Source: Psammoneis japonica
Taxonomy: Eukaryota
DNA length: 47,695 nucleotides
Assembly: GCA_008632985.1 (NCBI GenBank)
Contig: QPGO01000096.1
Location: 248,001-295,695, forward strand
Direction of reading: 5' to 3'
Shown: one piece after another, positions 15,007-47,695 of the stretch
How the letters are laid out: each line of letters begins with the position of its first letter
Position numbering within the stretch: position 1 is the first letter of the stretch
Program-made: the position numbers and the translations under genes
Notes under the pieces: generated by a model
Databases searched by the model: none
What the model was told of the DNA's origin: nothing
Seen by the model: only the letters and a program-made list of their open reading frames with translations

Positions 15007-15405
15007 ATTTGAAATTTTCCGATGTCGCAAATTTTTCGATTCGGCAGTTCAGTGGAGAAAAATTTAAAATTGCAATCTCAATCTTCGGAAACCATCAGCG
15101 CCACGGCAGGGACTGCCGTAAAAAAACGCACACCATGACGAGAGCCGTCTTGTGGACGTTTTCTTTCACCATTAATGCAAGATGTATCACAGTGATACTA
15201 AAGGAACAATTTTTTCTTCTACACTCGAGAGTGACACTGTATCTTCAATTTATTCATAGGAACGCTGGACAGACCTCATCATCACATTTTTCAGCTTTCA
15301 GCTCAGATCATCAACCATGGCCATCTGGCACTACACCACTTGCATACATACTGTCGCCTTCTATAGATAGGCTAATTGTACATACTGTAAAACACGACAA
15401 GTAAA

Positions 15406-22295: not shown

Positions 22296-22698
22296 ACGCT
22301 GTATATGAATGGCTTGTGGGGGAATATCGAGCCACGCAAACTTGGCAAATTGTGCACCTGAGTCTCTCAGCTAGTTCACAAGTCTCGCTGCAATGTTTGG
22401 TGATAAACTGCATTTATTTAGTTTGAACGGCATGTATCCAACAATACCGTCCCTGCGCTGGAAAGGAGTTGTTTGTCGTCATTAGCTGTAGACTGTAGAC
22501 TATTCTTCAGTGATTTGAACTGTTCTTCACGCATTTCGCCGCCGCTATCCTCCGCAGAGCCTTCACGTCGTTCGTCGCCCTCATCATTTTTGTTGCTCGC
22601 GTCGTCTGCTCGTCGTGTCGTTGCGCGTCAAAAAGATATGCTATATTGCGACAGCAAACCACATAAAAAACAGCAGCAGCAGCAGCAGTAACGACACC

Positions 22699-27343: not shown

Positions 27344-28530
27344 TGTCTTGCGTTTTCGTGTTGTGTGTTGTTGTACCAGGCTGCTTACCAATTTTTTGTG
27401 TCACTTTCGAAAGATTTTCATCGGAGCAACAGAAAGCAAGACATCGCTTCGCGTTTCTGTTCAATTTTTGGGAATCACGACACAACGGACGCGGTCATCA
27501 GTTATGAATTATGAGTCGCGAATTTTCTTCTTATGAGTCGCACTTCTGAAGTGAATTCTTAGTTCGCGTTTTTGAACAAAGTCGCGTTTTCTTGCGTCAT
27601 CTCACTTTTAAGAATGCATTCCCGCCAGGCTGAGAGCAATCGTGTTGTCCGTTAGGATAGTGTAATAGGCAACTGTGCGATTACGCAATAGCGAAACAGT
27701 CAGTCCCGCAATCACAAAACGCGACGTCAAATTATCTGCGGTTCTAAATAAAAAATAGAACCGCGGGAGAAGGGCGTTTCGTTTCAGAGACATGTTTGTC
27801 TGAGCACTTGCAACATAGCTGTGGATTATGATGGGAACAAAAGATATGGATTTGGAAAGAGACGCCATTGCCATCCACGCAGATTTGGAAATTTTGGAAT
27901 GCTGCTTTCTCCCTCCGACATGCAAGCATGTAGAAGGTGTACTGTGATGTACGCAGCACACGGCTCATGAGTGCCGTGTGTTCGCGTGCGGCGGCACCAG
28001 GGAGTTGCATGAAATGTCGACATTTTCGTTTTTCCCTGTTTCGTTTTTCGTGGTTTTTCGTGACGATAATTCATTTTACGCATCCCCTAAAGCTTTGCAT
28101 TTATTTAGGGCTATCCATATGCGAACACCAGACACCGGATAGATGGGGTCGAGCGAAGACACGGTGCTTATCTCAGCGACATAGTGTCGTAGAAATATTA
28201 ACTTTGTACCACAGATATTAATATATAAATATTATATATCACTGCTGCAGGCCAACGCAAGAACCAAATTTTTCCACGCTGCACCGTGACAAAAAAAATG
28301 GTGAGTTGCCGTTGCTTTCGACGATGTCGTTTGCCAGAAGCGATGAGCACGAGTGTGATGTTTTGACAAAATATTGCTATTCAACGTCAATGCTAACGAT
28401 GTTGCTAAAAACATCACACTCGCATGGACCAGGAAACAACAAACAACAATGAACAAAAGTCACCTTGCCTCCGGGTGTGGCGACACCTCCACGACGCCTC
28501 ACCACGACGACTTCACCAAAACCAATGAGT

Positions 28531-29260
28531 ATTGCAACGGCTCCAACATGTGTTTCGTTGTTGTGACTCAAAGCAATGATGGATGCCCTTTTACAATGCT
28601 TGCAAAGTTTCAATCCCCATGAACGACCTGCAACTGCCGCCCAACGAGAAAAGTGCGACCAAAAAAAAATTGCATTCGAGCCCGTTGTTTTACCTTTCAG
28701 GCCACAAATTGCAAGGGGTCCAACATTTTGCTCTCCATCACAACTCAAAGTAATGCTGGATGCCCTTTTACAAATTCTTGCATCGTTTCTAGCCCCACAA
28801 GCCACCGGCCTCTCACTGCACCGCCAAGACTGCGGGTTGCAATGGGTTGAACATGTGTCTCTCATTAGAACGATCCAAAGCAACACTGGATGCCCTGTTC
28901 CAATTATCTTCTTCGTTTCTAGCCCCACAAGCCACCGGCAACCGGCGACCGACGACCAAGCGCCAAAAAAAATGTTGTGTTCCGGTCTCTTGTTGTGCCA
29001 CCAAGACCTCAAATTGCAATGGGTCAAGCACACATCCCCTCGTCACAACTCAAAGTGCTGATTGACGTCATGTTGCAATTTCCTGCATCTTTTCTAGCCC
29101 CACGAGCGGCCGGCAACTGCCGCCGGACGACCAAAGCATGCAGAAATGCTGTTGTGTTCCGGCCTCTCATTGCGCCACCAAGGCTGCAAATTGCAACGGG
29201 CCAAACATGCATCTCTTCACAACGACTCAAACAAATGCTGCATGCCCCACAAAGTTTTCG
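28531..29260 (+). repeat. 177-bp tandem repeat, ~4.4 units, readable as a 59-aa protein repeat
   Basis: Anchor (A/G)TTGCAA at 28531, 28708, 28836, 29013 and 29190 (spacings 177, 128, 177, 177). Translation PRPQIAxG...SQLKxMLDALLQxxASFLAP recurs. Confidence 0.85.
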
Positions 29261-29419
29261 CAACGCCCGACATGTTGATGCGGCTGGCATCAAGTGTTGC
29301 ATTTTGACGAGAAAAAAGTGTGATTGAAAGAATGAAAACATTGATGATTGGGTTGTGGGTGCAAGTCACACTCTGTCGCCTGCGCGCAGAAAAAAAGCAC
29401 CGTGAAGAGCGAACGGCGA

Positions 29420-29900
29420 AGGCGGCGATGGTTTGTTGTGCGAAGCGAAAGTCAGTGCCGTCCACCGTCACCGTGCATGCCATTGTCATCCATGAACCTG
29501 GGTTGCCAGTCAGTCTAAGATGATGAGATGGTGAAGCTAATGCCAGTGCATTGATTTTCAAAAAGAGATTGGAGTGATGGTGCGCAACAAGTCCAGATTT
29601 ACAATTAACTCCATTCCGACACAAAACCATTTTCTTGTCGTGTCTTCGTGTGCTCCACCACAGATTCCCGGCAAAATGGTTTCAGAACAATGCAGATTCA
29701 GAAAACAAGGGCACACAACAAGTGAGTGGGCAGGAACCCATGAGAAAGGTTGCCTTCATCTTGAAGAAGGCCCCACAACTGCACACTGCTGCATGTCCTG
29801 CAAAGTGCTCAAGCATGACGCGAACCCATTGGCTCCAAATCCACTCCGATCTTGTCGGCCTCTGAATGACTGTCCTTGCAAGACAATCCACTGTGGCTCT
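29420..29900 (-). pseudogene. PIF/Harbinger (ISL2EU-like, DDE_Tnp_4-type) transposase relic, N-terminal part up to the first catalytic Asp
   Basis: Across frameshifts: HFAGHAAVC / LWGLLQDEGNLSHGFLPTHLLCAL / FLNLHCSETILPGICGGAHEDTTRKWF / DWQPRFMDDNG / CTVTVDGTDFRF. This matches my recollection of the HLLWAL.FL..Y.SE...RKW and VDGTDFR motifs of this family. Confidence 0.7.
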
Positions 29901-30112
29901 GGGCAGGCGCATTTGCATGGTGAGCAGCACAGTCGTGTGTTGCGCATTTGACATTTTACATTGTTGTGCTAAAATGATTGCTGCCGCGCTGGTGCCACAC
30001 AGCAGTGTTTTTGTTGCCACAGGTGGATTGATGGTTCCATGTGTTGTCAGGCAGGGTTCTCATTCATTTCCAACGTCTAAAAACAATGCTGTGATGCCAG
30101 GCCTTTAAAGAG

Positions 30113-30617
30113 AGATTCCCTTTGGGAACGCTCTTGGTGCGGTCCCGGAACGCTTTTGGTGCGGTCCCGGAATGGTGGAAACACGGGAACGACGAAATGC
30201 CCATTTCGTCGAATGGCATTTCCACGTTGGAGCCATTGGCGGTTGTCATAGATGTGATTTAGTGTCAAACAATGCCAGTGGTCACAATGCATCACAGCAG
30301 TTTAACTCACAGCCACTGCAACTCAAAATTGTTGAGACTTCCAACAGCCGTTCTTTTCCTCAGAGAAAATAGAAACCTGTTTTGACGGGTGCACCTTTTT
30401 GCAATAAATCCATCTAATCTGTTAAACTTTTGCACCATTGTGCCACACTCAAACAGTTCCAACAATGGCGCACCAACCACAACGCATCATGTGTCTCATT
30501 GGCGAATTGACCGGCTCCAAAGTTTGATTTCCGCGCGAATTGGTGCACATGAGAACGTTCTCGGAACGGTGTTGGAACGCTTCTGGAACGCTTTTGGAAC
30601 GGTGTGCAAGGGAATCT
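30113..30617. repeat. ~505-bp element bounded by a 10-bp inverted repeat, with subterminal 11/22-bp GGAACG arrays; possible MITE
   Basis: AGATTCCCTT (30113-30122) and AAGGGAATCT (30608-30617). (GGAACGCT(C/T)TTGGTGCGGTCCC)x2 near the left end and four GGAACG units at 11-bp spacing near the right end. Confidence 0.5.
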
Positions 30618-33600
30618 TGAACGACAACAACCCAAAATGGTCTGGCCCTTGGTCCCCCCAAGAGGCCTTTTTTGGTTTTGGCGGTTGGAGCCATTTGGCG
30701 GGATTTGAATTTGAAATCTGCACTGTCGCACGAAAAGCGATGAGGTTGAGACAGTCGTGACTGGTTCAAATCGGAGTTCGGGATCGAGAAGGGAACTCAA
30801 CGGCGTCTCTCTTGCAGTCGCGCCTGCCGTGCAGTGCACTCATGCGTGCAGAAACGCCGTGACAACATCATGTGCTCTCACAGCAACTCCGATGATGCAT
30901 GTGCAGATGTGCAAATGTGAGTGCAGTGGGAAATGAGCTGACAGGCGGGCACCGATAGAAGGTGACGTCAGCATCGATTGTCGCACCGTGTTGTCGTTCA
31001 TTCAGTGCTTGTGATGATGCACCATGCCAACCCAATTGAGTGAGCTGTTTTTCACACACTGCACAACATCATTTTGACATTCTCATTCCAGTGGGTTGTC
31101 TTCTCAACGAGAAATTTTGGCAGGGGTCTGGTGAAGACACAACCACCTGCATTTCTGGGGGCATTTTCTCTCGGCACTTGGTTGGAAAAAAGACAATTGT
31201 TGAGAAGCCTTTCATGGAATTTTGACATTTTGTCAAATCAACCAGAGTCCCAAACACACAGGATTTGTCCTGCAGCCAAATGCCTCGAATGTTGTGTGTC
31301 TGTGGCATGTCCCCTGGCAAAAAGTGCAAGCATCGTTTGAGTGGAAAGTGCACAAACTTTCGCAGCATCGTGCAGACCGTGGCACTCGCATGCAGGCAGG
31401 CAGGTCTCTCTGACATTTCTGTGCGTTTTTGCAGGGAAAAACAAAAATTTTGACATTTCACGCAACTCCCAACGGCTCACATGTCTGATTGACCCGGATG
31501 CCAAATCTTGAGTTTGTTGAAAGCACCGCGACATCATTGCGACGGTTGTCGATCGACCATGGCACCTTTGGTGCAAGTTGCAGAACACAACATCAACATT
31601 GTTCCCGTTTCTTTTTTCATTCTTAAGGACATTTCCACAATCCATCCGACAAGAAGCTTGGTCATGTTTTGTGTCAATGAGAACGTTGTGGATTTGTGGT
31701 GGTTTTGTCAAAGTGCGCCAAAAAATCGATTGTGCGATTCGAGACAGGTTGGCACCATTTCGATTGTCAATGGCGCTTTCACCAATTTTCTCACTGCTTT
31801 TTTGTTTTTCATTTATCTTTGTTTTTTTTCTTCAGAAAATTCAAGGGTGTGGAGTGTTTTTGTGGCAATCTGCAATCTGCAGCACCGCTTTTGGGAAGAA
31901 GAGCAGCGTTGCTGGAGGCACATGTGGTTGGTGCATTGGGGGACAAGGCATCATGTGATGGCAACACCCTGGTGGAAATGCAGGTGGTGCTTGTGACAGA
32001 AAGGCAAACGGCTGTGGGAGGAAGTGACCCACAGGAGGAGGGGGTGAAATCGTTGCAAGCGGGGACATGATCCTGCTGGCTGCAACAGCAGTGTGGCATC
32101 GACTGATTCCTTGGCAGCATGTGCAGGCAAGCTTCCTCCAGCCACACTTTGTCAGCAACTTCTGGTGAGTGGGAGAGAGGGGATGTGCTCTCATTGGTCA
32201 TTCCCACCCTCTCTGGCCTCTCGATTCTGCCACCTTTTTGCCGGCAATGCTTTGCGGATGTGGCAGCTGGAGCAGATTGATGAGAAAACACATGAGGCCC
32301 TGCCTCATTGTGACAAATTGACCCACAAGCTTGCTCTCATCTGACAGAACTTGACAAACAATGCATTGCCTTGGTGGTGTGCCCTGCCGCATCAAGATGA
32401 TTCGTCGCTGTCACTGACAATGAAAAACACAACAAGGCCGCTTGATCAGATTGTCCTGCTGCTTTTTAAAGAGACTGCTGTGGACCATGCCCAGAATGTG
32501 CTCATCTGCCTTTTTTCCACATTTGCCATGGCTGAGGTGCCAGAAACAACTCAACTCACTTGTGGAGTCTGTTCAAACAACATCCCTCCATTCAAAGTTC
32601 CGCTTCGTGGGCCAAAGCATGGGACGTCATTCATGGAACAACAACAATCATGTTGAAAGCATTGACAACACCATGGCTGATGACCCATGTTGTTTTGTGT
32701 TGCAAAGCAGAAACTGAAAATGCTGGCATTTGCATTTCCTTGCTCTTGTCACAAGTGCTGCACACCAAATGACTTGAGTTCAGTGCGGCCGTGTGGGGAG
32801 CCAGACAGATCTTGCCATTGACCAATCATCCGGAGAGCAACAATCCAGCAGAGACATCACTGCAATCGGCATTGCTTGCTGACATGGCAAGCATCTGGCA
32901 GAGCTGAGCAATGTTTGTGACATGAAAGCCAAAATTGTTTGCAATGCAAAAGCTGGAATCCATGCCCCCCCCCCCCCCCCCCCCTGCTCACCTCAAAAGA
33001 AACTCTCTCCACTTCCCATGAGGATTCATGGCAATGCGAGTCCATTCAGCACCTTTCCTGGTGCCGCCATTGCTGCCACGTTTGCTGGCCATGGTGAAAA
33101 CTGCAGCCGCAATTGGCGCTGTCTGATGACTGAGATCTGCTGTGTTTTGTTGGCTTTTTCTCTGTCAAACATTTGGGTGCAGTGGACACATCTCGCATGA
33201 ATGCAACAATGCCGCTTTTCCAGAGATTGGCTGTCCACAAAAGAGAAGTCCATTTGTCATTGCAATTTTTCTGGAGGTCTAGAAAACTGGCAGCATCGCA
33301 ATGTCGTGCAGATCAACCCAAGGTTGCCCTGAGTGATGTCCATTGAGAAAGGTTGTGCAAACATGAACCACCAACTGGCACAAAAAGCTTGCCGATGCCA
33401 GCCGCAAGACAAGTGTCCAGAGCCACAAACATCCTCAGACATTTTCTCAGCACATCAACACAATTTCTTGCTGTTTGACAATGGCTGCTGTGAGAGAATG
33501 ATGCACCACTTTCCCTCTAAAAATGCAAAAAGTTAATTCTTTGCCCAAAACACAATCTCACACCTGCTCCTCTTTGCTGCCCAAAAGCAAGCACTGTGCT

Positions 33601-36067
33601 TGACTCTGCTCTTGTTGTGTGTGATCTGGTGCAGCCTTCTCTGTTTGCAATCCTCCAATGTGCGGAAGTGCTCTTGGCTGCACACGTGCCCTCTCAGCAA
33701 GAAGTTCAGGATTGTCAATGACAGCTGCAATGACATTTTGCTCATCATCCTGGTCACTGGCCAGGTTGGTTGTCCAATGCCAACAAAGCTGCTGCAAAAC
33801 CTGGCTTCTTCTTTTTTCTTTGTCATTTCTGCCTTTAATTTGCAAATGTGAGAGTTGCCAGGCTCCTGGGCAAGGGAGACAAGATGCCTTTCTGATGCAG
33901 AGCTGCACTTTTTTTTTCAGCAGAAAAATTGCCACTCTGCTTTTGCTCCACTCTCTTGTTCTTGCAACACTTTGTTGCAGCTCCTGCTCACACTGTGATC
34001 TGACAGTCACTGCTGCTGCTGCTGCTGTTTCAGTTTGTTGCCAAGCTTTTTTCTCTCACTTTTTTCTCTTGTTGGGGGTGCAAAAAGACCAGGCAATTCT
34101 GTGAAACATCCACATGATTTGATTTGTTTAACTTCAACCAGCACTGGATTGGGCGGATGGCCAACTGGCATGCCCATCAATGACAAGCACTCGGTTTCCA
34201 TCTCTGCACACAACACACAGGTGCAAGCAAGGACAGCCACAACAAGCCACCCAAGCATGGATTTGGAACAAGCTCAACAAGCTGATTTTGAGCATGTTTG
34301 CAAATGGCTCATCTCTCTGACCCCCACATTCTTTGCTTGCCATGGTGCTTCTCCACAATGTTGTTGAAGCACTCGCTCACCACAAGGGCACTGTGGAACC
34401 ATGACAACATAGAAAATGAAATGATTTCGTGAGTGTGTCAACTTTTGCTTTGCAGAGGATGCCAAAATCACTCCAAACAAGAGGCAAAAAGCAACAAGAG
34501 CACAAGAGAATGAAGCACAGCTGCGCACATTCCACTGCACTCCACTGTCAAGGCTCAAACAGGAAAGGCCAAGGCCTTTGCAGCTTCTTTTCAGGTGGGT
34601 CTGCATGGCAAGGATCCAACGTTGAAGTGCTGTCAAGTGATGCTGGGCTGAGACCAGAGTTCAGTGACTTCAATGAATTGCCCAATGACTGCAAAGCTCT
34701 GCCACTCTCTGAAAAGCAAGAATGAGGGCACAATTGAGGAGCGTGCAAATTTTTTGTGCAAGCTGCACGGCTTTTCTTGTGATCAGAGAGTGTGGTTTGA
34801 GGCAGATCACAAGGAGGCAATTGAGGATGCATTGCTGACATGTTGTGCTGGCCTGGAGGAGAAAGCATGTCAGGAAGAAAGCCTTTCTTGCAGATGTCAA
34901 AGGGTGTGACCCAGCTGTTGAGGCTGTGGAGGAGCATGCTGTTGCAGCTCAAGATGGAGTTGCTGTTGAGGACACATGGGTCCAGGAATTTGGCAAAGAT
35001 TGCAGCTCTGCCATGGTTGCCAAAATTTTGAGTTGGCTCAGTTTTTCCCAAGGTTGTTGTTTTGCCAGAGTGCAAACACAAATTTCAAAACATGGGGCAG
35101 TGCTGCATCCATGGAACATTGGAGCATTTCCCTTGCACTTGGCACCCAACTTTGCAAGCTCACCATGAACTTTGGAAAAAATGCACAATTGTGAAAAACA
35201 GAAGGTGCTGCCCCCCCCCCCCCCCCCAAGTGCACCAGCTGTTGATGCAGCTGGCTCTGACCCCATGCCATTGTGAGTGCTTCTTGCTGCTGATCTGCCC
35301 CCAGCAGCAGCTGACAGCTCACATCTGCCTCCAAGCTCAGCCAAAAATGCCTTGGATTTTTTTTCTCAGCACACCCGCCACACACACAAGCTCCTGTTTT
35401 TCTGCAACAGCTGCTGTGAGAGAGTCTTGAACCACTTTTCCTCCAGCCACACATGCACCCTTTTTTCTGCAGTGCCTTTTGTTGGCAGCATTTTTTTTGT
35501 TGAGTTTGGGCTCTTTTTGCTTGTTGTTTTTTGGCACTTGCAACTTGTTCTCTGCCAGAGGTGCTGGCAGGAGGCTGCCAGTGAGGTGCGCACATTGCTG
35601 GCAGCCAGCCATGTGGAGCTGAAGTGAAGGTTGTGCACAGGATCAAAACACAACTGCGAGACCCTGCAGCCATTGTGAGACCAAATGAAGTGCAGCCGCA
35701 AGCGCTGCAGGCCTTTGCCAGCGATTTGCTCAAAAGGAGTGGCTGGCTGCGGTGCTCCCTCTCACATCTTTTGCTTTCTTTCTTGTTTTGTTGCCTTGTC
35801 CATCTGGAATGGCACAGTCAACATTTGGCTGGACATTGTCATGATCTGGCAAGCTGTCATGGCCATTGTCACCCTGCTCAAGACAGAAGGGCCTGAAAAA
35901 GACCCAATTGCTGCTTCTGCGCGGCAGCTGAAACGCGTTAACGGGTCATGACGAGACACACACAATTCCACCAAAAGATATGCCCCTCTGTTTTTTCCGT
36001 TGACTTTCTTCAATGGTCATTCGATCAGAGTCATAAGTCTGATTCAACGGAAGGTGCCAAATAAAGG

Positions 36068-37305
36068 ATGCGGTTGTTGGTCATTGCAATCTCGGTCATC
36101 ATCCTCTCAGCTTTTTATCATCAAGCCCCAATGGTCAGGGCCTCACAAATCCGAAAAGGCCACCGTTCCTTCCCCTTGGCGTCGTTTTGCAGCCTCAGTA
36201 TAGCCAACTGCCACTATGAGGAATGCTTTTACTACCTTCCTGATTGCATCGTTCAATCTTTCCACTGTGACGGCGACGCCGGCTCCGACAATTACGCCTG
36301 CTGAAACGCCGGCTCCAGCGCCTAAGGTGAGTTGAACCGCCAACTCTAAATGCTGATAGAGACGGCAAGCATGGCATGGATTGACCTTTGCTGCTGTTTT
36401 CGGATATACAGGCATCCGCCAGTAGTTGCGATGTTGTCCTGGAGGACTTTTGTTTTAAAACTGACGAGGGTGTGTACCACACAGTTGGCGTTCCTTCTCA
36501 TACACTCAGGCCCCTCAAAGAGCTTAGTACATGTGGAGGTGGCGTTGAAGGAAGATGTGATGACGATGAACTGTGCAGTGAGTTGTGTGGTTATTGCCAT
36601 GACTATGTGGCAGAAAATGGTATGTGCCAGTGTAAGGCCAAACTCTTGAGTCAAGACAAGATTATGAAGAAGGTGTACCAGGACCTTGGTGTGCCAATGA
36701 AAAAGAGCAATCCATGCGGACCAAGGTGGCATGGAGTTACGTGCAATGAAGAAGTGGAGGAAACTGAAGTATTGAAAATTGATTTGAATAGTAAGTGGCC
36801 TATCTGTTAGTGCCACGTGGCTCTACCTCTTAAGTGGAAACTAACACCCACTTGCCAAACTTTGTGAACAGATTTCGGTGCCAAAGACATGATGAAGATT
36901 GATGCGGCCATTCCACCGGAATTGGGCTGCATTGCCACGTTGGAGTATTTAGATTTGGGTGAGTTCATCGAATTTAGGCAGTTGCATTGAGTCCATAAAC
37001 GTGGCAAAGTGAATCTCATCTTTTGATCAAATCTTTCTCTAACTTTCTGATGAAGGCTTCAATAAGCTGAAGGGACCTATTCCTGCAACACTCGGCAAAC
37101 TGGATAACTTGCAGGGTCTTATTTTTCGTAAGTTGGGCTATTCTTCGCCTCTGATTCGGTTTGGCGATTTCTGTATGTTTTCTCACACTCTCCGTCGGTA
37201 ATAATCGTGTTCGTAGACTACAACGCGCTGGAAGGCGTGATCCCGAAAGAGGTATGCCAAAAAACTCCAACTATTGTTGCCGACGAGGCCAACAAATGCG
37301 ACTAG
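36068..37305 (+). CDS. Secreted multi-exon leucine-rich-repeat protein (plant-type LRRs); exact exon structure and stop uncertain
   Basis: Signal peptide, LRRNT-like CGPRWHGVTC, then IPPELGCIATLEYLDL, FNKLKGPIPATLGKLDNLQGL and YNALEGVIPKEVC, separated by GTAAG/GTGAG introns. Confidence 0.7.
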
Positions 37306-37549
37306 AGCCGATTATGACGGACGCGTCAATGACGAATCCCATCTGCAATGTTGTAGCTTAGTAGAGAAGAGTATAATAGCGAAGCGCAAAAGAGAGGGAC
37401 TGGGCAGAGTTCGTGATATGTTAAACTTAGTAGCCCCAAAGGTACCCAGCAAATCTACTATCTAGATCAAATTCATCCCTCACCATTCGTGAGCGAGCAA
37501 AGCTACAGAAGAAATATCCCGAAACGCGTCATTTCATCTGTTCATGGTC

Positions 37550-39096
37550 TCACGAACCCTTGTTTTCCTTTCCTTTCTCTTCCTCTTCTTTACGAGCTTT
37601 CAGAACACGCTGCTGCTCTTCTACTTCTGCAGCTTTGGAGTTTGCGTATTGGTCGTGTTTATGCCATTTCTCCCCGTGTAACTTCTTGTACAAGACAGCC
37701 CTTGCTCCCTTGTCCCAATCGCTGTTGAGCATACCATAAACAAGAGAATCGCTATTACTCTCCTTGATGACTTTATGCTTGGGAATAAGTCCCTCCTGGG
37801 TAAATCCGAGCCGTCCCGGTAGTTTCTTACTCTTGACATCTTGTGAGTCCACAAGGAGCTGTATACGACGATAACCCAACGCAAAGAGACGATCCAACAA
37901 GAGGAAACAAGCTTCCATTTCTTCTGCGGTTCCCGTTGAGGTGGGTTTGCAAATAGGAACTTGCATTTCGATATTCAGATTGCGGGGATCATCTCCTGTC
38001 AACGACATAACACCAATCAGACGATCCGTCATCATTTCGCAAATGGCAAAGGAAGCCATGTTTTCTTGCTTTCGTTCAAAGATTTCGGATGCTGCCATTT
38101 GTTCTGGAGATTCAAAGGGTCCGCAGTCCAGGAAGGCCCAAACTTCATTCGGGTTGTAAGATTTATCTTCCATGTGTGACTGACCACTGGTGATGTCGTA
38201 AAGTGATTGCAAGTGACGAGATTTGTCCAAGAGTTCCAATCGTACCGTCCGTCCAATAATATCTTGGGGACGCTTCGAGTAGTGGTCAGTATACTTCTTT
38301 TCGGTTGCGTGTGTGGCACAGGCCATGCGTTCATACATTCGTGCATAGGACCGACGATAGTTTGTAGTGGTCCAAGATCCGCAACCAGCATATGCCCGAG
38401 CAAAAGCTTCAAATCTGGCTTCTGGCAATCCACCCAGGGGTCCGCCTGTGACATGATCGGACAAGCGTAAGGCAGCGGGTACGGTAAGGTACCACGAGAT
38501 TCACCATTAAGACTTATTCAGCTTTGTGAACATGTACCACTACTTACCCCCCGGTTTATCCTGGCACAGTCGATAGCCTACGATAAAGTTCTCTTCGAAA
38601 TCACTCAATGTTTTCTTGTTGTCTTTCTTGGAAGACTCTTCACTCACCAAGTTCGAAACCGTGGTGGCGTTGGGTTGTTTGTTGAGCAGATTACGTTCCA
38701 ACGTGGTTGTGACCGACCCATCTGTTTTCTCTTCTGTGTAGGATTTCATAAGTCGCTCTCGAGCAAGTAAAAGTCGCTCGAGTAGCAGCGGGCGTTCCGC
38801 ACGAGCTTCAGTAGCGGCAGGTAACGTAGCGGCCCCCGTTCTTGCTTGCTCGGCCATTCGTTCAAACGAGCCTCCTTTGACCAGTAGCACGAGCACAGCC
38901 GAGACTGTACAGGTAAACACAATACACCCAAACAGGATCCCATATCGTTGAGCTGTTGGTAGCTACGGCAATGCAATTTGTTACAACAAACGAGCTATGA
39001 GAAAGGTTCAACACTATCACCAAGCACGAAATTCCAATTCAACAAATCACAAAGTGTAACGTCTTACGTTGGCGAGGCCAAAAGCTTCCAAAACAT
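37550..39096 (-). CDS. GNAT acetyltransferase (RimJ/RimL-like) with N-terminal TM segment; multi-exon, 5' structure approximate
   Basis: LLLDRLFALGYRRIQ...SKKLPGRLGFTQEG...DSLVYGMLNSDW. An upstream exon encodes YGILFGCIVFTCTVSAVLVLLV, with GTAAG donors nearby. Confidence 0.75.
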
Positions 39097-39459
39097 GATC
39101 GACTGATGAAAACGAAGAGGTTAGCTGTGAGAAGGCAAGAGTTAGCTTCTCAAAGTCGGACGGTTCATCAGGGTTCGCCGCCATGGTGTTTGTTGGATGT
39201 GCGGCGGCGAGAAAAAATGAGATCATTTTGTGTCAGTTTGACTGTAAGTGTGAGAAAAAGGTGCTCGAATGAACTTGAAAGGTTGCATGGTTCCTTGTCT
39301 GACTTTCGCGCAAGTCCCGCCTCGCGCGCGATGACATCGCGCGGAATCTTCGATCTTATTCGCGGATCGAGCGTTTTGAGTCACGAACAGCTAAGGCACA
39401 CAGCACACTCAACAAAGAGCGCAAGAGAAACAGAGAAAGACACACCAGCCTCTTCCACC

Positions 39460-40633
39460 ATGAAGAACTTCTTCAACAGCAGCAACAAGGGCAAGGCTCC
39501 GACCTTTAAGAACCCCTTTCAGCCACCAAAGAAGAAATTTGGGGGTGGGGGTCAGAGCTTGGGCGGTACAAAGCCCGGTAAAGTCCTTACAATTATTCTA
39601 TCCAACCCTGGGGCGCTTGGTGTGAAGGTTGAGAAGCGGCCCAACGATAGTACCGCAATTATTGCCATGGTGGTTCCGGGAAGCCAAGCTGAAGAAGCAG
39701 GACTAAAGCGGGGAGATGTCGTGTGTTACACCGAAAGCAATGGGCAGGACGAAATTTCATACGATGACTTTTTGAAATTTGCTGCATCGTCCCAGCGTCC
39801 CATGGTGTTTGATGTAAGGCGCATCGAAACAAAACATTCCAATCCAAACAGCAATAAGAATCAATCTGCTGAATCAGAAGCACGTAAGCGCGCCGTGATT
39901 GCTGCGGCAGAGAAGAGAAACAGAGAGCATAAGGCCAAGTCTAAGCCCATTCCCAAGACGATCAAGAAGAAAGAAACGCCGGCTCCCAGCACGCAGCCAG
40001 CATCGAACGAGCCCATGTCGTTAGAGGCGAAGCAAGCTATCGCAGCAGCAAAAAATCAAGAAGAAGTACTGGCGAACCAGTTGGGATACAATCCGTACGA
40101 GACAAACAAAGCGTCCGCAGGCCAAGTTAGAACTGCAACAGTTGCCATGACGCACGGGAACATTCAATCAAACCCAAACAACTCCACGAGTAATACTGCT
40201 ACTGCTGGTAACATCAGTGAGTACCAAATGTCGCAACGCCATCTTCATTAGCTCAACCAATTGATGATACTGTTCCACCCGTGAGTGATGCCTTTCAAGA
40301 CGCCTTTACCCAACTAGTGACTACCAACAATGATACCAACGGCGTCATGTCGTCGCTGCAAATTATGCAGAAACTCATTGTGAATGCCACAACCAAGGGA
40401 CAAGGATCAGAAGAGAATGCCAAGTTTCGACGTGTCCGTTTAGGTAACGCAAAAATTCAACAAGCAATTACGGATATAAACGGAGCGCTGGAACTCATGC
40501 TCGCGGTGGGATTTCAGCTTTGGAGGAGAGCGGCGAAACCCATTTGGTTTATCCGTTTCCCTCCACTGGACCACTGTGGCTGCCAAGAGCACTCGAGACC
40601 ATGCAACAGTACCAGGAATCACATGAAAAGTAG
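39460..40633 (+). CDS. PDZ + PUB domain protein; apparent frameshifts near 40230 and 40520
   Basis: PDZ: GALGVKVE...VVPGSQAEEAGLKRGDVV. PUB: LQIMQKLIVNA...AKFRRVRLGNAKIQQAITDINGALELMLAVGF. The shifted frame ends ...QQYQESHEK* at 40633. Confidence 0.78.
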
Positions 40634-41066
40634 GTACAGTAGACTGGTTAGATGCGGCTTGTTGTAGGCAGGTAGCACTTTTACGACAATAGAAGAGTGC
40701 CGCATAGAACTATAGAGGCGGAAGTAGCTGCTACTAATGTCATTCCAACCTCTATCTATTCCACTGTCGCAACCGACCTTGATTTATCCGTTCTGCGTGT
40801 TTGTAGTCTTATCCGTTTCCCTCCACTGGACCACTGTGGCTGCCAAGAGCACGCGAGACCATCACACCACAGGTAGATAGACTGACTAGATGCGGCTTGT
40901 TGTACGCAGGTAGCACTTTTAGGACGCAATAGAAGATTGCTGAATAGAACTAGAGAGGCGGAAGTAGCTGCTACTTACTTGGTGGTAGGCATGTCATTCC
41001 GGCTTCTTTGTTCTCTTCCACTGTAACAATCGATCTTGATTTATCCGTTCTGCATGTTTGTATAGT
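40549..41066. repeat. ~260-bp diverged tandem duplication covering the 3' ends of two convergent genes
   Basis: TTATCCGTTTCCCTCCACTGGACCACTGTGGCTGCCAAGAGCAC at 40549 and 40809. GAGGCGGAAGTAGCTGCTACT and ATGTCATTCC...CTTGATTTATCCGTTCTGC occur in both copies. Confidence 0.92.
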
Positions 41067-42898
41067 TCTAGCTCATATCGACTGTGCTCTTCGAGCAAAG
41101 CTAGGAGCTCGGGAGCGGTATTGCGCAGCACGTTTTGGTAGCCCTGGTACCTTTCTTCTGAATCGTCTCGTTGGACAATCACATTCGCCCTTACCTTAGA
41201 CAAGGAAGCAAAAGATTCGGGTACTCTCATAATGTCCGCCACGTAGGCCGCCTGTTCTTGAGTCGAAAAGGTTTCCGAAAGCAACACCACATCGAACGAC
41301 TCCAACACCGACATTGCTCGTTTGAGCGTCGCTTGGCTCAAATGGTGATATGCCCTTGTGCCGCCACCAAACCTACCACCGTATTGGCACGGCCCATGGC
41401 ACCTCTGGCATGTTTGACACTGTTTAAGCTTCTTACGCCGTACACAGTGATGCTGTGCTTCTCTGTAGTCGGGTAGTGCGCTTGTTTCTCCAGTGAGAGC
41501 GCGAAGTTGAAAGTTATCTACAAATTGACCACCGAGAGCACCATTCTCTCTGTGTTTATGCATTCCGTCGTCTATCCATGCCGGTAGTTCCTCTCGAAGA
41601 AAGTTAGCAAATTCCACAGTATACTTTTTTGTTTCGACCCAGTCGTAAATGGTCTTGTTCCTTCCTGGGCCAGAGTAGAAGAATTCAGAAAGATGACGTT
41701 CAATGGGATGACGAACACCAACAACGCTTATTGCGTCATTCCACCGCATATCGATTTGGGGGCAGCGCCAATCCATTGCATAAAACTCCTGTTCATAAAT
41801 TGAAATGTTTTCTTTTGGATGAATCGCCTGATGGTACAGCACAACATTGTCCAGATACTTTCGTATCGAAGTGCCTCCCGCCTTGCGCATGTGCTTGAAG
41901 AATACATACACGTTGCGTTGTTTGTTCCACAATCGTTCATCCCACAAACTAGTGTTTGATGGCTTCAATCGAGAGCTACTATTTTGAGCCTCTTTGAAAA
42001 GCCCTTGACGTGCAGAATTATTCATCAAATCTGGAGCGATTGGAGGCGTGCTATTGGCGGTAGTATCGGAAAGCCGCTGCAAACATGATTCATTGATACC
42101 AAAAAGATCAGCAAGGTACGTTCCTGCCTTTTTATCTCCTAAGTCTAGCTCCACCAATGCATGTGAAGGATGCTTCGAAACAAAGTTGCGTACGCGTTTC
42201 ACTTGGTTGCAGATGAATCCAGCCACATCCTCATGTCTGCTTGAAATGTTGAAGCAACTGGAAACTCGATTGCTCAGTGAATCCCAGTTCTTTACGGCAT
42301 ATCTCCAATCATGAGCGTTCCGAATATCAAGAAGAAACGTGGCATTCGGATGCTCATTATGAATTTGCTCCAAGAACTGAATCTGAGGCCAAACGCACAA
42401 TCCTTTTGTTGGATGCGTTATCTCAACCTGGAGGTATGCGCCGTAGTTGCCGCATGATCCAAGTGGACCGTCGCCACGTGCAACGGCATCACGTATACAA
42501 ACACCGCACCACCTCGATCCTTTTTCAGAAGACGAATCAAAGCACGTGTGATGGCTTACGTTGAAGCGGTTGCCGCATTTGAAGAGATCTGCGATAGTAG
42601 ATGCGGCAGACGTACTAGGAAATCCAAGATTCACAATAGGAGTGGGGAGTGGTAGCAAGACAGTCCCTCCGTCTGAGTCTCTTGGTGTAAAGCATGACAA
42701 CGTGCTTGGGATATCGCTTTTTGCGCTCGAGGAATCAACGAGAGTTGCGTTGTGAGAAACATCTTCAGAGAACCAATGAGTGATGGTTGCCATAGATTTT
42801 CGTCCATCATCTTTTAGAGCAAACAGTGTGAGTATGACGTACACTACGACGGAGTAGATTGCCACGCAGCTTGCCATCCATTGATGTGTGCGACGCAT
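40994..42898 (-). CDS. Type-II membrane sulfotransferase-family protein with two sulfotransferase-like modules
   Basis: N-terminal TM helix. The C-terminal module has 5'-PSB FFKHMRKAGGTS and 3'-PB RHPIERHLS. The N-terminal module has a degenerate PIVNLGFPSTSAAST loop. Confidence 0.75.
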   Translation of the reverse strand: MRRTHQWMASCVAIYSVVVYVILTLFALKDDGRKSMATITHWFSEDVSHNATLVDSSSAKSDIPSTLSCFTPRDSDGGTVLLPLPTPIVNLGFPSTSAASTIADLFKCGNRFNVSHHTCFDSSSEKGSRWCGVCIRDAVARGDGPLGSCGNYGAYLQVEITHPTKGLCVWPQIQFLEQIHNEHPNATFLLDIRNAHDWRYAVKNWDSLSNRVSSCFNISSRHEDVAGFICNQVKRVRNFVSKHPSHALVELDLGDKKAGTYLADLFGINESCLQRLSDTTANSTPPIAPDLMNNSARQGLFKEAQNSSSRLKPSNTSLWDERLWNKQRNVYVFFKHMRKAGGTSIRKYLDNVVLYHQAIHPKENISIYEQEFYAMDWRCPQIDMRWNDAISVVGVRHPIERHLSEFFYSGPGRNKTIYDWVETKKYTVEFANFLREELPAWIDDGMHKHRENGALGGQFVDNFQLRALTGETSALPDYREAQHHCVRRKKLKQCQTCQRCHGPCQYGGRFGGGTRAYHHLSQATLKRAMSVLESFDVVLLSETFSTQEQAAYVADIMRVPESFASLSKVRANVIVQRDDSEERYQGYQNVLRNTAPELLALLEEHSRYELELYKHAERINQDRLLQWKRTKKPE

Positions 42899-43160
42899 GT
42901 TTGGAGAATAAGTCCTAGCTAGTAAGGTGTATTGACTTTAGCCATCTTGATGAAACTGTGTGGGGTGGGATGCACCCGCCGCGCATCCCGTGGTTCGCGC
43001 TATTGCCTCCTTCTTGCTGAGAGAACAAATTACTCACAGTCCTCCGTCACAACTAGAAGTAATGAAAAGACATAAAGGGAAAGCGTTCTCCGCCTGAAAG
43101 CAACTAGTTTACCTCAGCGTAGATCTATGAAGTTCCATGCAAAATTACTAAAACTAGAAA

Positions 43161-45047
43161 CTAGAGTCGTAACTTCGACAGTCTAGGGCAACGTCGGTTC
43201 AGCATCCCCACATCGTCTTTCGAAACGAAGTAACAACCACCCAAATCTAACTCAGACAGCGTACCAGCAGAAGGGCTACTGCCCAGGGCATTCAAGATGC
43301 TTTTCCCAAACTGCTCCACAACTCTAGATGGTGCCAAAGCTTCGTCGGCCTCCTTTTGAGTTCGATTGGGAAAGCATCTCCACAGGGACAAACGTCGCAA
43401 CCCCCCATCACTGCTCGTCATGCCGTGCTTGGCGAGTGTCAACGTTAATGTATCCATTGCATTCGTGTCCGTGCCAACAAATCCCATGCATCCACCCAAG
43501 TCCAAATCAACAAGGCTTGGAGAAGAGGCAACAAGCCGAGCAACGCCTTTGCATGTAATGCTCGTGTGTCCAGAAAGATTTACACACCGGAGAGCTAGCT
43601 TTTCTCTCAGCAATTCTTCCATACTTTCGTCAGTCAATCGATGAGATCTGCCAAAGACATTGGCGCAAGAGAGGTCGAGCGTCTGCAACCCAAAAACATC
43701 AATATACGAAAGAAGAGTTCGTAACAAAGCGTTGGACCATGACTCTCCTCCGCCACTCATTCTTAAACTCGTCAGCCGTAATGAAGACTTCTCACTGCTG
43801 CTCACTCCCAATGACAATGCTTGACATAGTTCAGACGCAGTGACCCCCGTGTGAGAAATGTCGAGACTTGATAGTCGCCCACACGAAGAAGGAATGGAGC
43901 CGCCTCGAGATGGCGATGCCGGTGGAATATCAAAGAGAGATTGCAAAGAAGCCAGAGCTTGGTGAGGCTGCTGCGAACACTTCCAGAGCTTTTTCAACGG
44001 TAGCATGCTCGTTATTTTAGTATTTCCTCGAAGACTCAAAACTTGCAGACGAGGGCAGTGAATCGCGACGAATTCCACAGCCAGGTTGGTCAGTAGCGGG
44101 CATTGTTCTAGAGCCAAGTGAGTCAATTTTGAGGAGGGTCGCCCGTGCCGACGGGACGACTTGCTTTGGAAGTTTGGCAGCACTAGAGAGGCCGTGAGCA
44201 TTGCGTGAACATGTGCATCAGTTAGGGATGCATAACCGGTTAACTTCAGCTGGCACAGGTTCGTCATGCTCGAAAGTGACGGAAGACATACATCAGGTAG
44301 CAAGCGGTATTGGATATCTGAAAGCGTCAGAGACTCGATTGTTGCTTCGTGTCGAGCCAGATGCTTGGCAATAAAGTGGCTTGTTTCTTCAGGAGACGCG
44401 GTTGATGAGGTGAGGAATTCGGTAGCATCCACTTGTTTCCAAGAATGTGTGTGATTTGAACAATAGCGCCATCGACGACAAACTTGAGAGCACTGTAGCA
44501 GTTCGTTCAAGTTTAGGTGAGAGAAGATCAGTAGCATCACCTCGTCATGGACATGCGAGAATAAGGAATTACAATGGAGATTCCAGAGACCTCGGACCCT
44601 TCGAGGAGTACAACGAAAACCTGAGGCTTTGGTTCTGATGCATGGCTTTCGAAGAACAGGAGAAAGAGTGACTCCTCTATTAGATATTGAGAAGGACGTG
44701 GAGGAAGGAGTGACTTTTGCAGAGTCAGTAGACTGGTGATTCCGGTTTTCTACCACTGCGCTTTTCTTGCGTGATCCACCCGTATTCGTATTTACCCCGT
44801 CGATTTGATCTCGTGGAGTTAGAATGCCATTACTTTTTTGACACCCCGAGGAGAAAGGCAGTGAAAATGTGGAGTTGCTCGAAGACCCAGCGGAATTCTT
44901 GGGAGGTACTTCAAACGTAAGAGCTGTCTGAGAAACGCAAGATGGACTGGGAGGTGGATGGGTCGACACCGAAACGGGGTTCGCTACGAATTCGGTGCGC
45001 GTATTTTCATCAGAACAGCAGCGACTTGAATGACAAGATATCGTCAT
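43161..45047 (-). CDS. F-box/LRR protein
   Basis: F-box HVHDEVMLLIFSHLNLNELLQCSQVCRRW, followed by cysteine-containing LRRs (LTHLALEQCPLLTN, CPRLQVLSLRG, LVDLDLGGC). Confidence 0.9.
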   Translation of the reverse strand: MTISCHSSRCCSDENTRTEFVANPVSVSTHPPPSPSCVSQTALTFEVPPKNSAGSSSNSTFSLPFSSGCQKSNGILTPRDQIDGVNTNTGGSRKKSAVVENRNHQSTDSAKVTPSSTSFSISNRGVTLSPVLRKPCIRTKASGFRCTPRRVRGLWNLHCNSLFSHVHDEVMLLIFSHLNLNELLQCSQVCRRWRYCSNHTHSWKQVDATEFLTSSTASPEETSHFIAKHLARHEATIESLTLSDIQYRLLPDVCLPSLSSMTNLCQLKLTGYASLTDAHVHAMLTASLVLPNFQSKSSRRHGRPSSKLTHLALEQCPLLTNLAVEFVAIHCPRLQVLSLRGNTKITSMLPLKKLWKCSQQPHQALASLQSLFDIPPASPSRGGSIPSSCGRLSSLDISHTGVTASELCQALSLGVSSSEKSSLRLTSLRMSGGGESWSNALLRTLLSYIDVFGLQTLDLSCANVFGRSHRLTDESMEELLREKLALRCVNLSGHTSITCKGVARLVASSPSLVDLDLGGCMGFVGTDTNAMDTLTLTLAKHGMTSSDGGLRRLSLWRCFPNRTQKEADEALAPSRVVEQFGKSILNALGSSPSAGTLSELDLGGCYFVSKDDVGMLNRRCPRLSKLRL

Positions 45048-45289
45048 ATAATCAGCGACAGCAGTGGTTTCGGATTGCGTTATCGATATCGGCCGATATG
45101 AAGAATGAAAGAGGTGTTCTTTGTTTTCCAGACTGTGGCAGCTTCATGCATGTGAACGGGGTGCGGATTTCTGTTTTCTGCACACGTGGTGAGAAATAAA
45201 GTGTCAAGTGTCAGGCAGGATTGCGGACGGGACGTCTGCAAGCATAGGATGTGTCAGTCAGCGTCACGACAATCCGTTCAGATAACGGT

Positions 45290-47695
45290 CGCTTGGTTTT
45301 CCTCCTCCAGCCTTCTCTGTCCGCCGCTGCTTCTTTCGTCATCAGCTCCCTCTCTCTCCGTGGATGATCATCATTCCAACACGACTGTCAACCGTTTCTG
45401 TGAAATCCAGTTGGAGTGCTGAAAGAAAGTGGGTTTCGTGGTGGGAAAGACAACATGTCTTTTGTTTTGAATGACAACTCCATGGCAGCCACCCACTCAA
45501 AACATCTGCATGTGTTTCTGCATGAGCTCTCGCACAGATGTCGCCCTTTTCAGATGGCATGTTGCTGGCTCTCTCAAGACCATTCTGGCCATTGGCATCA
45601 ATGGTGTGCCCTTGTTTCAGCATGTTAAACAATGTCACCAAGTGGAAAATGACTGGCGTCAACTCCTTGTTGGTCGCATGCTCGTTGATTTTTTTTGTCA
45701 TTTTCTGCAGATCCAAGAAATTTTCTGCATGGATCCCAGTGCAAATTCCATGCACTTCAAACACCACCAATGAATGCCTTGTCACATCTCGGAGCTTCTT
45801 GTGCCCACACCTGTCTGTCCTCAACATGACCCTCTTTGTTCCTGTCAGCCAGCCAAGTCCTTCACTCTGTGGGGTGAAAGCGCCGCTTCAGCTGCGGCGC
45901 CGACAAGCATGAGTGTGAGCCCTTCTTCAGCATCAATTGATTGTTCTCCATTTGCTGTGTGCATCAGCATTTCCATGCAAGATCCAGCACAAATTCTGCG
46001 TGCTTCAGCAAACACCGCCGATGAGTGCTTTGTCACGTCTCCCCGAGCTTCTTGTGCCCTTGCCTGTCTGTCCTCAATGACCCTCTTTGTTCCTGTCAGC
46101 CAATCAAGTCCTTCACTCTGTGGGGTGAAAGCACTGCTTCAGTTGCAGCACCAATGAACATGAGCATGAGCTTTTCTTTGGCATCAATTGGCTGTTCTCC
46201 ATTTGCTGTGCGTGTCGACACTCCTGCGCAAGATCCGGCATGGTTTCTGCATGTGGAAAATGTTGTTCCCGGTGACCAACCCATCACATCATCAAGTGCT
46301 CCTGTTTCCAATCTCCCAGTCATGGACAACCCCTCCCTCCCTTTCTGGCAAACCAAGCTTCTGGCTGCATGCAGCGATCTTTCCATCTTTGTCACATTTC
46401 TTGGAGGTTGGAACAAAGCTCCCTTCTCAATGAGCGAAGCCAGCGGTTTGAAAAAACCATTTTTTGACTTGCTTCCCTTTGCTGTTCCCAAACCCAAACC
46501 TGTGGGCAATTGTTCTTTGCCATGCTGGTGTGGCAGATGCGTCTCCAGCCCAAGTGAAAGCAATGAGCTCCCCAATGTGTTGCTTCATCACCCCCATCCA
46601 TCTCAGGCATGTGTCCTTTTTGGAGGGCACTGCAACAAGCCAATTGCGACAACTTCTGCCACACCCCTTGCAGGGTGTGCTGGAAGTGTTTGACAGCCAG
46701 TGCTGGTGTTGCTGGGCAAAGGCGCAACAGCACTTAAAATTGGGACCGAGTTTTTGTTTTGTTTTGAATGGAGGAAACAGGAAAAAGGGGAAACATCACC
46801 CACAACAAAAACACAACAAGCAACAGAAAAAAAGAAAGGGGCCAGCGCCCTCGCTGGTGTTGCAAACAGCTCCAGACAATCTGGCTGCACCTTTTCATGC
46901 TGGTAACCAGTGCTGCTTGGTGATCTTTTGCCACATTTCATGCAGCACCAGCACCAGTCATGCCTTGTCAACAAGAGCTCCAGCACCAGATCAAGGCTGG
47001 CGCACAAGTGCAAAATTTTGTCAACTTGTTTGTCAAAAGCACGTTCCAGCACATTCATCACAAAAGCTGGAGCCAACACTTTGAGTGCCTTGTGCACAAT
47101 CCAGGAGAGCCATTGTCTCAGTCAACCATGTGAGAGACTAAAGTGCTGAGCAAATGCATGCCTGACATGACAAAACAGAGTGCAAAGGTCAGAAAAATTT
47201 TTTTTTCTGCCCCGCCTTTTCTGGCAAAAAAGACAAGAACACCATCAGAGCTGCAGCAATGTTTTGGTCTGTGGATGCCACCACATCTCTTTTTCTTTTT
47301 AGCACAAGTGTGATGCAGGCTTGTGGTGGCTTCAGCAACTTTCAAGTGTGCGCATGAAAGTTTTTTTGTGCTCTCATCTCTCTCAGCCTGTTTCACCTGC
47401 CCTCTCTGCTCTGCCGAGCTGTTTTCAATGACACACAAATGTGCCATCAAATTCAGCACATCTGGGTCAGCTCACATGGCCACATCTGCATTTCACAAAA
47501 ATGATCTGTTTTGGTGGTTTCGTGCATTGACTGCCTTTCTTCAGTGCACACAAAAAGATGTGTGCAAGAAATGATGAGCATCCTCTCTTGAGAACACACA
47601 GCAGGTGCACTTTTTTTGCAAGAGAGCTGGGGCATGCTCATCACATCACGTGCGGCACTTCACACCACTGACACACTGGAGCCAGAGACGCAGCT
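45290..47695. mobile_element. Second TpA-depleted decayed island, running off the window end; contains unidentified minus-strand coding relics
   Basis: Only 5 TA in ~2.4 kb (hand count), TG/CA excess and Tyr-free ORFs. Confidence 0.7.
45770..46253. repeat. 251-bp tandem duplication inside the second island
   Basis: ATGACCCTCTTTGTTCCTGTCAGCCA..CAAGTCCTTCACTCTGTGGGGTGAAAGC and TGTTCTCCATTTGCTGTG are repeated at a 251-bp offset (units start at 45770 and 46021). Confidence 0.92.

Follow-up and report, generated by a model that had tools for sequence, protein, structure and literature searches.

Near-complete loss of TpA from repeat-rich blocks of a diatom genome suggests a regional, context-dependent A:T-to-G:C mutation process

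To our knowledge, targeted hypermutation of repeats in fungi always attacks cytosine. Repeat-induced point mutation (RIP) of Neurospora and other ascomycetes changes C:G to T:A, mainly CpA to TpA, and thereby creates TpA (TA) dinucleotides, while the decay of methylated CpG yields TG or CA and cannot remove TA. Adenine deaminases of the TadA/ADAT type act naturally on tRNA, and we know of DNA activity of these enzymes only from engineered variants. In diatoms, according to one account, transposons carry CpG methylation and DNMT4 is related to the RIP enzyme RID (PMC9998398). The present analysis concerns a 47,695-nt stretch of the diatom Psammoneis japonica (GenBank assembly GCA_008632985.1, contig QPGO01000096.1, positions 248,001 to 295,695 of the forward strand), hereafter the window, in whose own coordinates all positions are given. 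Two blocks of this window have lost nearly all TA dinucleotides and gained TG and CA in their place, and a regional TA-erasing mutation process is very probably real.

All evidence derives from this one window and from one public sequencing run, X1, with few polarised sites. The run was used in the form of Logan contigs (k-mer contigs of short-read type), 989 of which were placed on the window, with a single-copy depth of ~58. A second run, X2, probably a transcriptome, has no cover over 33036–37037 and 45709–47695 and is not used as evidence. Expected TA counts are based on the flank frequency of 4.09–4.13% of dinucleotides. The non-ORF baseline consists of 20 flank segments outside open reading frames (ORFs) of at least 120 codons, 9610 bp in total, and the control tandem repeat (40545–41065) lies in an ordinary gene with normal TA.

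TA is depleted 20-fold where the loss is nearly complete, from ~4.1% of dinucleotides to 0.2% in 30431–35938, with the share in each part given in Table 1. The first block, 28240–35938 (7699 bp), holds 39 TA against ~315 expected, and the second, 45290–47695 (2406 bp), holds 5 against ~99 and runs past the window end. In 1-kb windows the observed/expected ratio (o/e) of TA is 0.00–0.07 in 30501–36000, 0.11–0.22 in 28501–30500 and 0.36–0.90 elsewhere in the window, while guanine-plus-cytosine (GC) content in the depleted blocks is not lowered (48–49%). The original prediction, made from the letters of this stretch without database searches, had counted 9 TA in 30961–35930 (4970 bp, ~200 expected), which is the exact number. 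It had also described TG and CA as abundant and the reading frames as nearly Tyr-free and Cys/His-rich, and both descriptions agree with the measured values: TG and CA each rise from 7.2–7.5% to 9.5–11.5%, and six-frame translation of TA-depleted DNA gives 0.02% Tyr (2.3–2.4% in the rest), 6.1–6.5% Cys (3.6%) and 4.75–5.3% His (3.3–3.4%). The sharp end that it placed at ~35940 is likewise present, normal TA density resuming at 35939 and stopping again at ~45283. Its gradual onset from ~28250 is replaced by a sharp left edge at 28240, where 23 TA in 28067–28239 give way to a partly depleted zone that reaches 30430. The second block from ~45290 and the CpG depletion seen in parts of the blocks go beyond what had been noticed.

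The dinucleotide balance indicates conversion of TA rather than its mere absence. The summed share of TA, CG, TG and CA is 24.0–24.3% in the flanks and 23.7–25.4% in each depleted block, so that the loss of TA and CG equals the gain of TG and CA. Tandem copies within the blocks resolve this change further. Specifically, the two copies in 45722–46230 differ by 51 transitions and 3 transversions and contain no TA; 35 of the 51 transitions fall in pyrimidine–purine (YR) dinucleotides, with 12 TG/CA swaps and 11 exchanges of CG against TG or CA. The tandem array at 28800–29240 shows 55 transitions, 18 transversions and 9 TG/CA swaps, and the pair at 28560–28945 shows 38 transitions and 19 transversions, including 3 sites at which one copy has TA and its partner CA. 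By comparison, 14 transitions, 12 transversions, no swaps and 14 conserved TA are seen in the control repeat. When the alphabet is reduced to purines and pyrimidines, identity of the 45722–46230 pair rises from 80.6% over 247 positions to 89.5% over 468, and that of another in-block tandem pair from 75.8% over 161 to 90.5% over 252, while the control changes little (76.4% to 80.9%). Neighbouring copies thus resolved the same sites independently, and the change occurred in place after duplication. Self-alignment of the window in purine/pyrimidine space and with transition tolerance added no more than two short matches to the tandem arrays already known, and a degenerate pattern derived from the high-copy part matched 0 metagenome contigs.

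The direction of change was read from other copies of the repeats, a limited form of one comparison that the original prediction had named among its checks. Transitions account for most differences between X1 copies and the window (by kind, 374 of 469 places). The polarisation sample is small and selected: 40 of the 476 X1 differences were listed, 34 of them within depleted blocks. Among these 40, the window carries CA or TG where the other copy carries TA at 7 sites (28348, 28392, 29387, 29582, 29612, 30098 and 30836), several of them at depths of 600–980, which represent most copies, and the reverse direction occurs at 2 (28751 and 34410). This sequence comparison supports TA as the ancestral state at converted sites, in agreement with the direction first proposed. 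As a separate observation, the window has CC at 30144–30145 where most other copies have TT, which hints at a T-to-C change outside TpA.

Surviving TA dinucleotides reveal a three-base context (R, purine; Y, pyrimidine). Across all depleted blocks, 27 of 44 survivors are YTAR. Counts of RTAY, mixed (RTAR plus YTAY) and YTAR survivors are 2, 11 and 16 in the partial block and 0, 4 and 11 in the saturated blocks, against 486, 816 and 250 in the flanks (p=4e-8 and 9e-9 for partial and saturated blocks, respectively) and 117, 283 and 100 in the non-ORF flanks (p=1e-5 and 1e-6). Relative to flank density, retention of the three classes is ~7%, 23% and 110% in the partial block and 0%, 2% and 21% in the saturated blocks; strand-symmetrised retention in the partial block is 0.13 for TAC, 0.16 for TAT, 0.47 for TAG and 0.66 for TAA. 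Because the survivors are mostly YTAR, the motif on each strand would be 5'-TAY-3', with A changed to G. The simplest rule is that the target on either strand would be the A of 5'-TAY-3' (as a base pair, equivalent to the T of 5'-RTA-3'), TAR being hit by our estimate roughly ten times more slowly than TAY. Among the products, RCAR gains 10.8 per kb versus 3.0 for RTGR, and YTGY gains 16.8 versus 4.7 for YCAY; in the first block this asymmetry amounts to 549:336 versus 1542:1364 in the flank (Fisher p=2.5e-6, and p=0.0036 against non-ORF DNA).

Both strands are affected. TG and CA occur in the ratio 827:797 in the first block and 248:271 in the second, and their interleaving is random (runs test z from -2.2 to +0.8), with no strand-coordinated tracts. 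Their equal frequency and random order indicate that both strands were hit without long one-strand tracts. Together with the mass balance, the tandem swaps, the polarised sites and the normal flanks, this bears out the earlier proposal of a both-strand conversion of TA to TG or CA restricted to the blocks.

CpG depletion overlaps with the TA loss and is separable from it. CpG o/e is 0.08–0.31 in 32001–36000 and 45501–47500, and 0.57–0.90 in 28501–31500, where TA is mostly gone. Since 30431–32000 keeps ~5% of its TA and ~79% of its CG, TA loss is the faster of the two and is uncoupled from CpG loss. CpG decay is a separate, slower overlay that explains only part of the pattern and is in keeping with the CpG methylation described for transposons in diatoms. 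Outside the blocks, the non-ORF flank segments have a TA o/e of 0.69 (range 0.36–1.23) and a CG o/e of 1.09, and normal TA in such DNA marks the process as regional, not genome-wide. In 68 metagenome loci around actin-related protein (Arp) homologues (512,120 bp), no block was both TA-free and CpG-poor, this DNA being too little and too distant to judge relatives. The lowest TA windows of these loci (o/e 0.04–0.32) represent a different pattern, with GC of 0.53–0.71, CG o/e of 1.5–2.0 and identity of 29–33%, and the lowest locus of mid GC has a TA o/e of 0.33.

The depleted DNA is multi-copy over 28.2–33 kb (summed depth up to 2400) and 45–47 kb (up to 1460) and near single-copy over 33.7–35.9 kb; the two former intervals are repeat DNA, as judged from read depth only. 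A contig with a summed depth of 892 joins 28143 to 29439, and a 39-bp inverted match between 28000–28038 and 31432–31470 does not extend beyond 39 bp. Pfam searches of 35 ORFs and 12 whole-frame read-through translations found no family that satisfied both E<=0.01 and its curated cut-off, four ORF matches at E 0.004–0.03 scoring 15.7–17.9 bits against cut-offs of 27–31. Purine/pyrimidine space held no period-3 signal comparable to that of genes, the longest ORF (258 aa, 35038–35814, minus strand) had 0 matches among 1.84 billion protein representatives, and searches for tRNA and Rfam families found none. The transposon and repeat relics of the original prediction are thus confirmed as repeats, by depth, but not as transposons, no domain having appeared in the 35 ORFs or 12 frames. 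In the highest-copy part, short tandem units of 22 and 11 bp, related in sequence, occur twice, ~430 bp apart (30125–30172 and 30553–30605), and may be a structural feature of the repeat element. C homopolymers occur inside the TA-free block, C20 at 32965–32984 and C17 at 35211–35227.

Several explanations would dispense with a regional mutation process altogether. Modified bases can give systematic miscalls in some long-read consensus assemblies, and X1 possibly represents the same data as the assembly, so that the blocks could in principle be a sequencing or assembly artefact. One X1 contig, however, covers 33351–35227 at a depth of 64.7 and shows 4 differences from the window. A second runs over the right edge (35211–40578) at a depth of 58.4 and shows 6, and the gene island stands at 57–58; these pieces of 1.9–5.4 kb carry the TA-free sequence at single-copy depth, which argues against a consensus artefact. 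A strand-specific miscall would also split the depth into TG and CA versions, which is not seen and makes modified-base miscalling unlikely. Sharp edges, and a pattern that tracks mutually different repeat copies, also speak against an artefact. This read check of the base-calling alternative, raised at the outset, leaves an artefact hardly worth entertaining. At 34410, where the assembly has TA and the X1 contig CA, the context ATAG fits the RTA motif, and the difference is possibly a polymorphism or a sign of a still-active process. A genome-wide neutral bias against TA and CG, visible only in old unselected DNA while selection keeps TA in genes and short intergenic regions, would need no targeting; edges ~250 bp away from gene starts, at which constraint would be expected to set in, and the unique, non-coding character of the most depleted part would suit it. 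A bias that removes 95% of TA would nevertheless show in the 20 non-ORF flank segments, which keep TA, and the TA-rich, unmutated repeat end at 28067–28239 directly adjoins the block. Moreover, one stretch has lost 95% of its TA and still retains 79% of its CpG, and tandem copies with a divergence of only 20% no longer contain any TA. Such a bias is very unlikely. Highly improbable, too, is an intrinsic or selected composition, whereby the elements already lacked TA on arrival, as from a foreign source, or avoid TA because of a TA-recognising agent: although no homologue or domain was found that shows the ancestral state, other copies in the same genome carry TA at the 7 listed sites, the same sites are TG in one tandem copy and CA in the other, the YR balance holds, and selection would have no coding signal to work on.

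Other alternatives accept the process and place it elsewhere. A route through RNA, in which repeat transcripts undergo A-to-I editing and are then reverse-transcribed and reinserted, would share with RNA adenosine deaminases their typical A-to-G change with a 5' U preference, and related copies of 28.4–30.4 kb do occur in the RNA-like run. Editing of one template strand nevertheless predicts one product, while TG and CA are equal and randomly interleaved, adjacent tandem copies mutated independently in place, and no reverse transcriptase or other domain was found in six frames, which makes this route scarcely credible. A closer alternative keeps the same regional process and lets thymine be attacked: the T of 5'-RTA-3' would be oxidised by a TET/JBP-type enzyme to 5-hydroxymethyl- or 5-formyluracil, or miscopied in error-prone repair, and would pair with G. 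The A of TAY and the T of RTA form the same base pair, and sequence cannot tell them apart; base J and dinoflagellate 5-hydroxymethyluracil favour T before A, and an activity directed at 5-methylpyrimidines that precede purines would suit the co-occurring CpG decay. Uncoupled losses in 30431–32000 (TA 5% and CG 79% kept) speak against such a shared activity, and AA, at 7.7–10.3% in the blocks and 8.0% in the flanks, is not depleted, which argues against a WA-type polymerase signature and hence against the version involving DNA polymerase eta (WA to WG). That polymerase, one of the agents first put forward, fits poorly, and attack on thymine as a whole is rather unlikely.

The explanation that we favour, at a level of confidence only slightly above even, is in-place conversion of TA to TG or CA on both strands of silenced repeat blocks, with an adenine deaminase as the most likely agent. 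Two transcriptionally quiet, repeat-derived blocks would undergo context-specific transitions in place at the DNA level, the A:T pair of TpA becoming G:C to give TG or CA. Conversion would be much faster with a pyrimidine after the adenine (TAY to TGY, or RTA to RCA on the other strand), would proceed to near saturation and would halt sharply ~250 bp short of genes. The base composition, the dinucleotide balance, the separate mutation of tandem copies, the confinement to the blocks and the context bias are established by the sequence, whereas the agent behind them is inferred. In this scheme an enzyme would deaminate adenine to hypoxanthine in silenced-repeat DNA, one strand at a time, and replication would then copy hypoxanthine as if it were G. 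Such an enzyme could be a nucleic-acid deaminase of the cytidine deaminase (CDA) fold, TadA/ADAT-like or otherwise, that the silencing machinery recruits. An adenine deaminase is favoured because the motif is defined per strand, because A would change to G and to no other base, and because the tRNA adenosine deaminases naturally edit an A that follows U, the TadA target being the A of U-A-C in the anticodon loop. The per-strand TAY bias in the blocks is consistent with DNA adenine deamination by a CDA-fold enzyme, and adenine deamination as the chemistry of TA loss is a tentative assignment, somewhat short of an even chance. Stramenopile-restricted deaminase-SAM-Tudor proteins and LmjF36.5940-like deaminases have predicted editing or mutagenic roles according to Iyer and co-workers (PMC3239186); they are candidates for the agent and not evidence for it. 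The fullest form of the proposal, a natural diatom DNA A-to-G editor serving genome defence, in which a deaminase, possibly of the deaminase-SAM-Tudor type, is brought to silenced repeats by RNA interference or heterochromatin machinery and exhausts its TAY targets, is doubtful.

A number of observations weigh against this explanation or narrow it. The high-copy repeat end at 28000–28239 is unmutated and the most mutated part (33.7–35.9 kb) is near single-copy, so that repetition alone is not shown as the trigger. The locus-targeted destruction of repeated DNA that was originally proposed is accordingly upheld as regional but not in its choice of repeats as the trigger; chromatin state or age may be a factor in targeting. 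Product asymmetry in the second block has the same direction without significance (145:108, p=0.21–0.51), and among sub-blocks it is significant alone only in 32001–35938. Directly polarised sites number only 9, with 436 of the 476 differences outside the listed sample, and of the 4 that bear on the TAY rule, 3 conform to it and 1 departs from it. Between the 45722–46230 copies, 16 of the 51 transitions lie outside YR dinucleotides, which indicates that a weaker, less specific transition component is also present. Moreover, the ancestral baseline is taken from flank composition, an assumption, and X1, if it is the assembly's own source data, checks for a consensus artefact and is not an independent replication. 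Finally, we know of no natural DNA adenine deaminase with such a role.

Table 1. Positions and properties of the depleted blocks and adjoining DNA in the window (ts, transitions; tv, transversions; shares are percentages of dinucleotides; TA share of flanks 4.09–4.13%)
Feature	Positions	Observations
Unmutated TA-rich end of high-copy repeat, adjoining the depleted block	28000..28239	23 TA in 28067–28239
Partly converted high-copy block with degenerate tandem array at ~28560–29250	28240..30430	TA 1.32%, CG 4.57%; 29 TA remain; summed depth 300–2400
High-copy repeat with TA nearly gone and CpG largely retained	30431..32000	TA 0.19%, CG 4.33%; 3 TA remain; summed depth 390–2300
Block with TA and CpG both nearly gone	32001..35938	TA 0.18%, CG 1.27%, TG 11.5%, CA 10.7%; near single-copy from ~33.7 kb
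Ordinary gene island between depleted blocks	35940..45289	TA 4.13%, CG 5.22%; depth 57–58
Second TA-free, CpG-poor repeat block	45290..47695	TA 0.21%, CG 1.95%; summed depth 400–1460 in 45042–47042
Two tandem copies of ~250 bp each, mutated independently after duplication	45722..46230	51 ts:3 tv

The surrounding genes are ordinary. By its sequence the window is identified as diatom nuclear DNA. In a protein search, the actin-related protein gene (22615–24162) has named relatives in diatoms only (Fragilaria, Seminavis, Mayamaea, Epithemia, Phaeodactylum, Nitzschia and others; best identity 60%), and the top named eukaryotic matches of the sulfatase gene are Attheya, Cyclotella and Thalassiosira, the best match overall reaching 74%. 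The intron-less arylsulfatase gene at 15406–17046 (plus strand) has relatives in diatoms at 53–66% and in bacteria, including Planctomycetota and Chloroflexota, at 54–69%, and its sequence suggests an old bacterial origin. Upstream of it, an AT-rich intergenic stretch at 14063–14200 (GC ~0.40) forms a large palindromic array, in which ~4.5 tandem 11-bp units are separated by a short AT-rich spacer from ~4.5 inverted copies of the unit; a separate 34-bp inverted repeat pairs 14755–14788 with 14974–15007.

Within the gene island, Pfam matches include GNAT, PDZ (weak) and F-box/LRR. The ORF at 43161–45047 (minus strand) starts 243 bp from the second block, and depletion stops ~250 bp before neighbouring genes. 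An X2 contig joins 38444 to 38547 exactly, between the minus-strand ORFs 37550–38464 and 38540–38920, and these two ORFs probably belong to a single GNAT-domain gene interrupted by a 102-bp intron (38445–38546). The control tandem duplication (40548–41062, ~260 bp, 76% identity) covers the 3' end of, and sequence just downstream of, the 634-codon ORF at 40994–42898 (minus strand).

If a TpA-erasing process with a three-base motif is at work, it would represent a second, chemically different solution to repeat control, in a major marine algal group. It would change the annotation of diatom repeats, because mutated copies differ mainly by transitions and have no detectable protein domain, and would affect repeat dating and base-composition models. 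Should an adenine deaminase be responsible, it would constitute a natural DNA adenine editor of known sequence preference, and a natural A-to-G editor of DNA would mirror the chemistry of fungal RIP and give laboratory adenine base editors their first counterpart in nature. The signature is easy to scan for: at mid GC, TA o/e lies under 0.1, and the TAs that survive are found in YTAR. No description of hypermutation from TA to TG or CA was found in the full-text literature on diatoms or elsewhere, most subscription journals lying outside the coverage of that search.

Among described systems, RIP provides the closest likeness. It shares with the depleted blocks a both-strand, transition-only hypermutation of silent repeated DNA with a dinucleotide preference, and in both cases mutation approaches saturation, stops near genes and destroys coding capacity. 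The chemistry runs the opposite way: here A:T becomes G:C at TpA, so that CpA and TpG are created. Instead of the TpA enrichment that defines RIP, TA is down 20-fold, CA and TG are up, and the listed sites run from TA to CA or TG. RIP is fungal, whereas these blocks are diatom DNA with unlowered GC. A RIP-like dependence on duplication is mixed, the multi-copy state of 28.2–33 and 45–47 kb standing beside the near single-copy 33.7–35.9 kb and the high-copy, unmutated 28000–28239. Methylated-CpG decay resembles what is seen in 32001–35938 and 45290–47695, where CG has gone to TG or CA; alone it does not account for the blocks, in which TA is also lost, to a larger extent, faster and uncoupled from CG. 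The earlier judgement that neither RIP nor 5-methylcytosine decay explains the pattern is thus sustained.

The footprints that ADAR and APOBEC leave in retroelements are likewise clustered, context-dependent transitions fixed in mobile-element DNA, and ADAR changes A to G with a 5' U/A preference. These enzymes act on one strand of RNA or cDNA and leave strand-coordinated runs, whereas the changes here are randomly interleaved and arose in place; APOBEC gives C to T or G to A, which is not the pattern observed. Hyperediting of the ADAR type is set aside on the TG:CA ratios of 827:797 and 248:271, the z values of -2.2 to +0.8 and the lack of a reverse transcriptase domain. A diversity-generating retroelement was also considered and rejected, the changes being transitions (51:3) with no reverse transcriptase domain in six frames. 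TadA/ADAT enzymes and TadA-derived adenine base editors resemble the proposed agent in converting A to hypoxanthine, read as G, with U or T before the target A, and the U-A-C site of TadA matches TAY; their natural substrate, as stated above, is tRNA.

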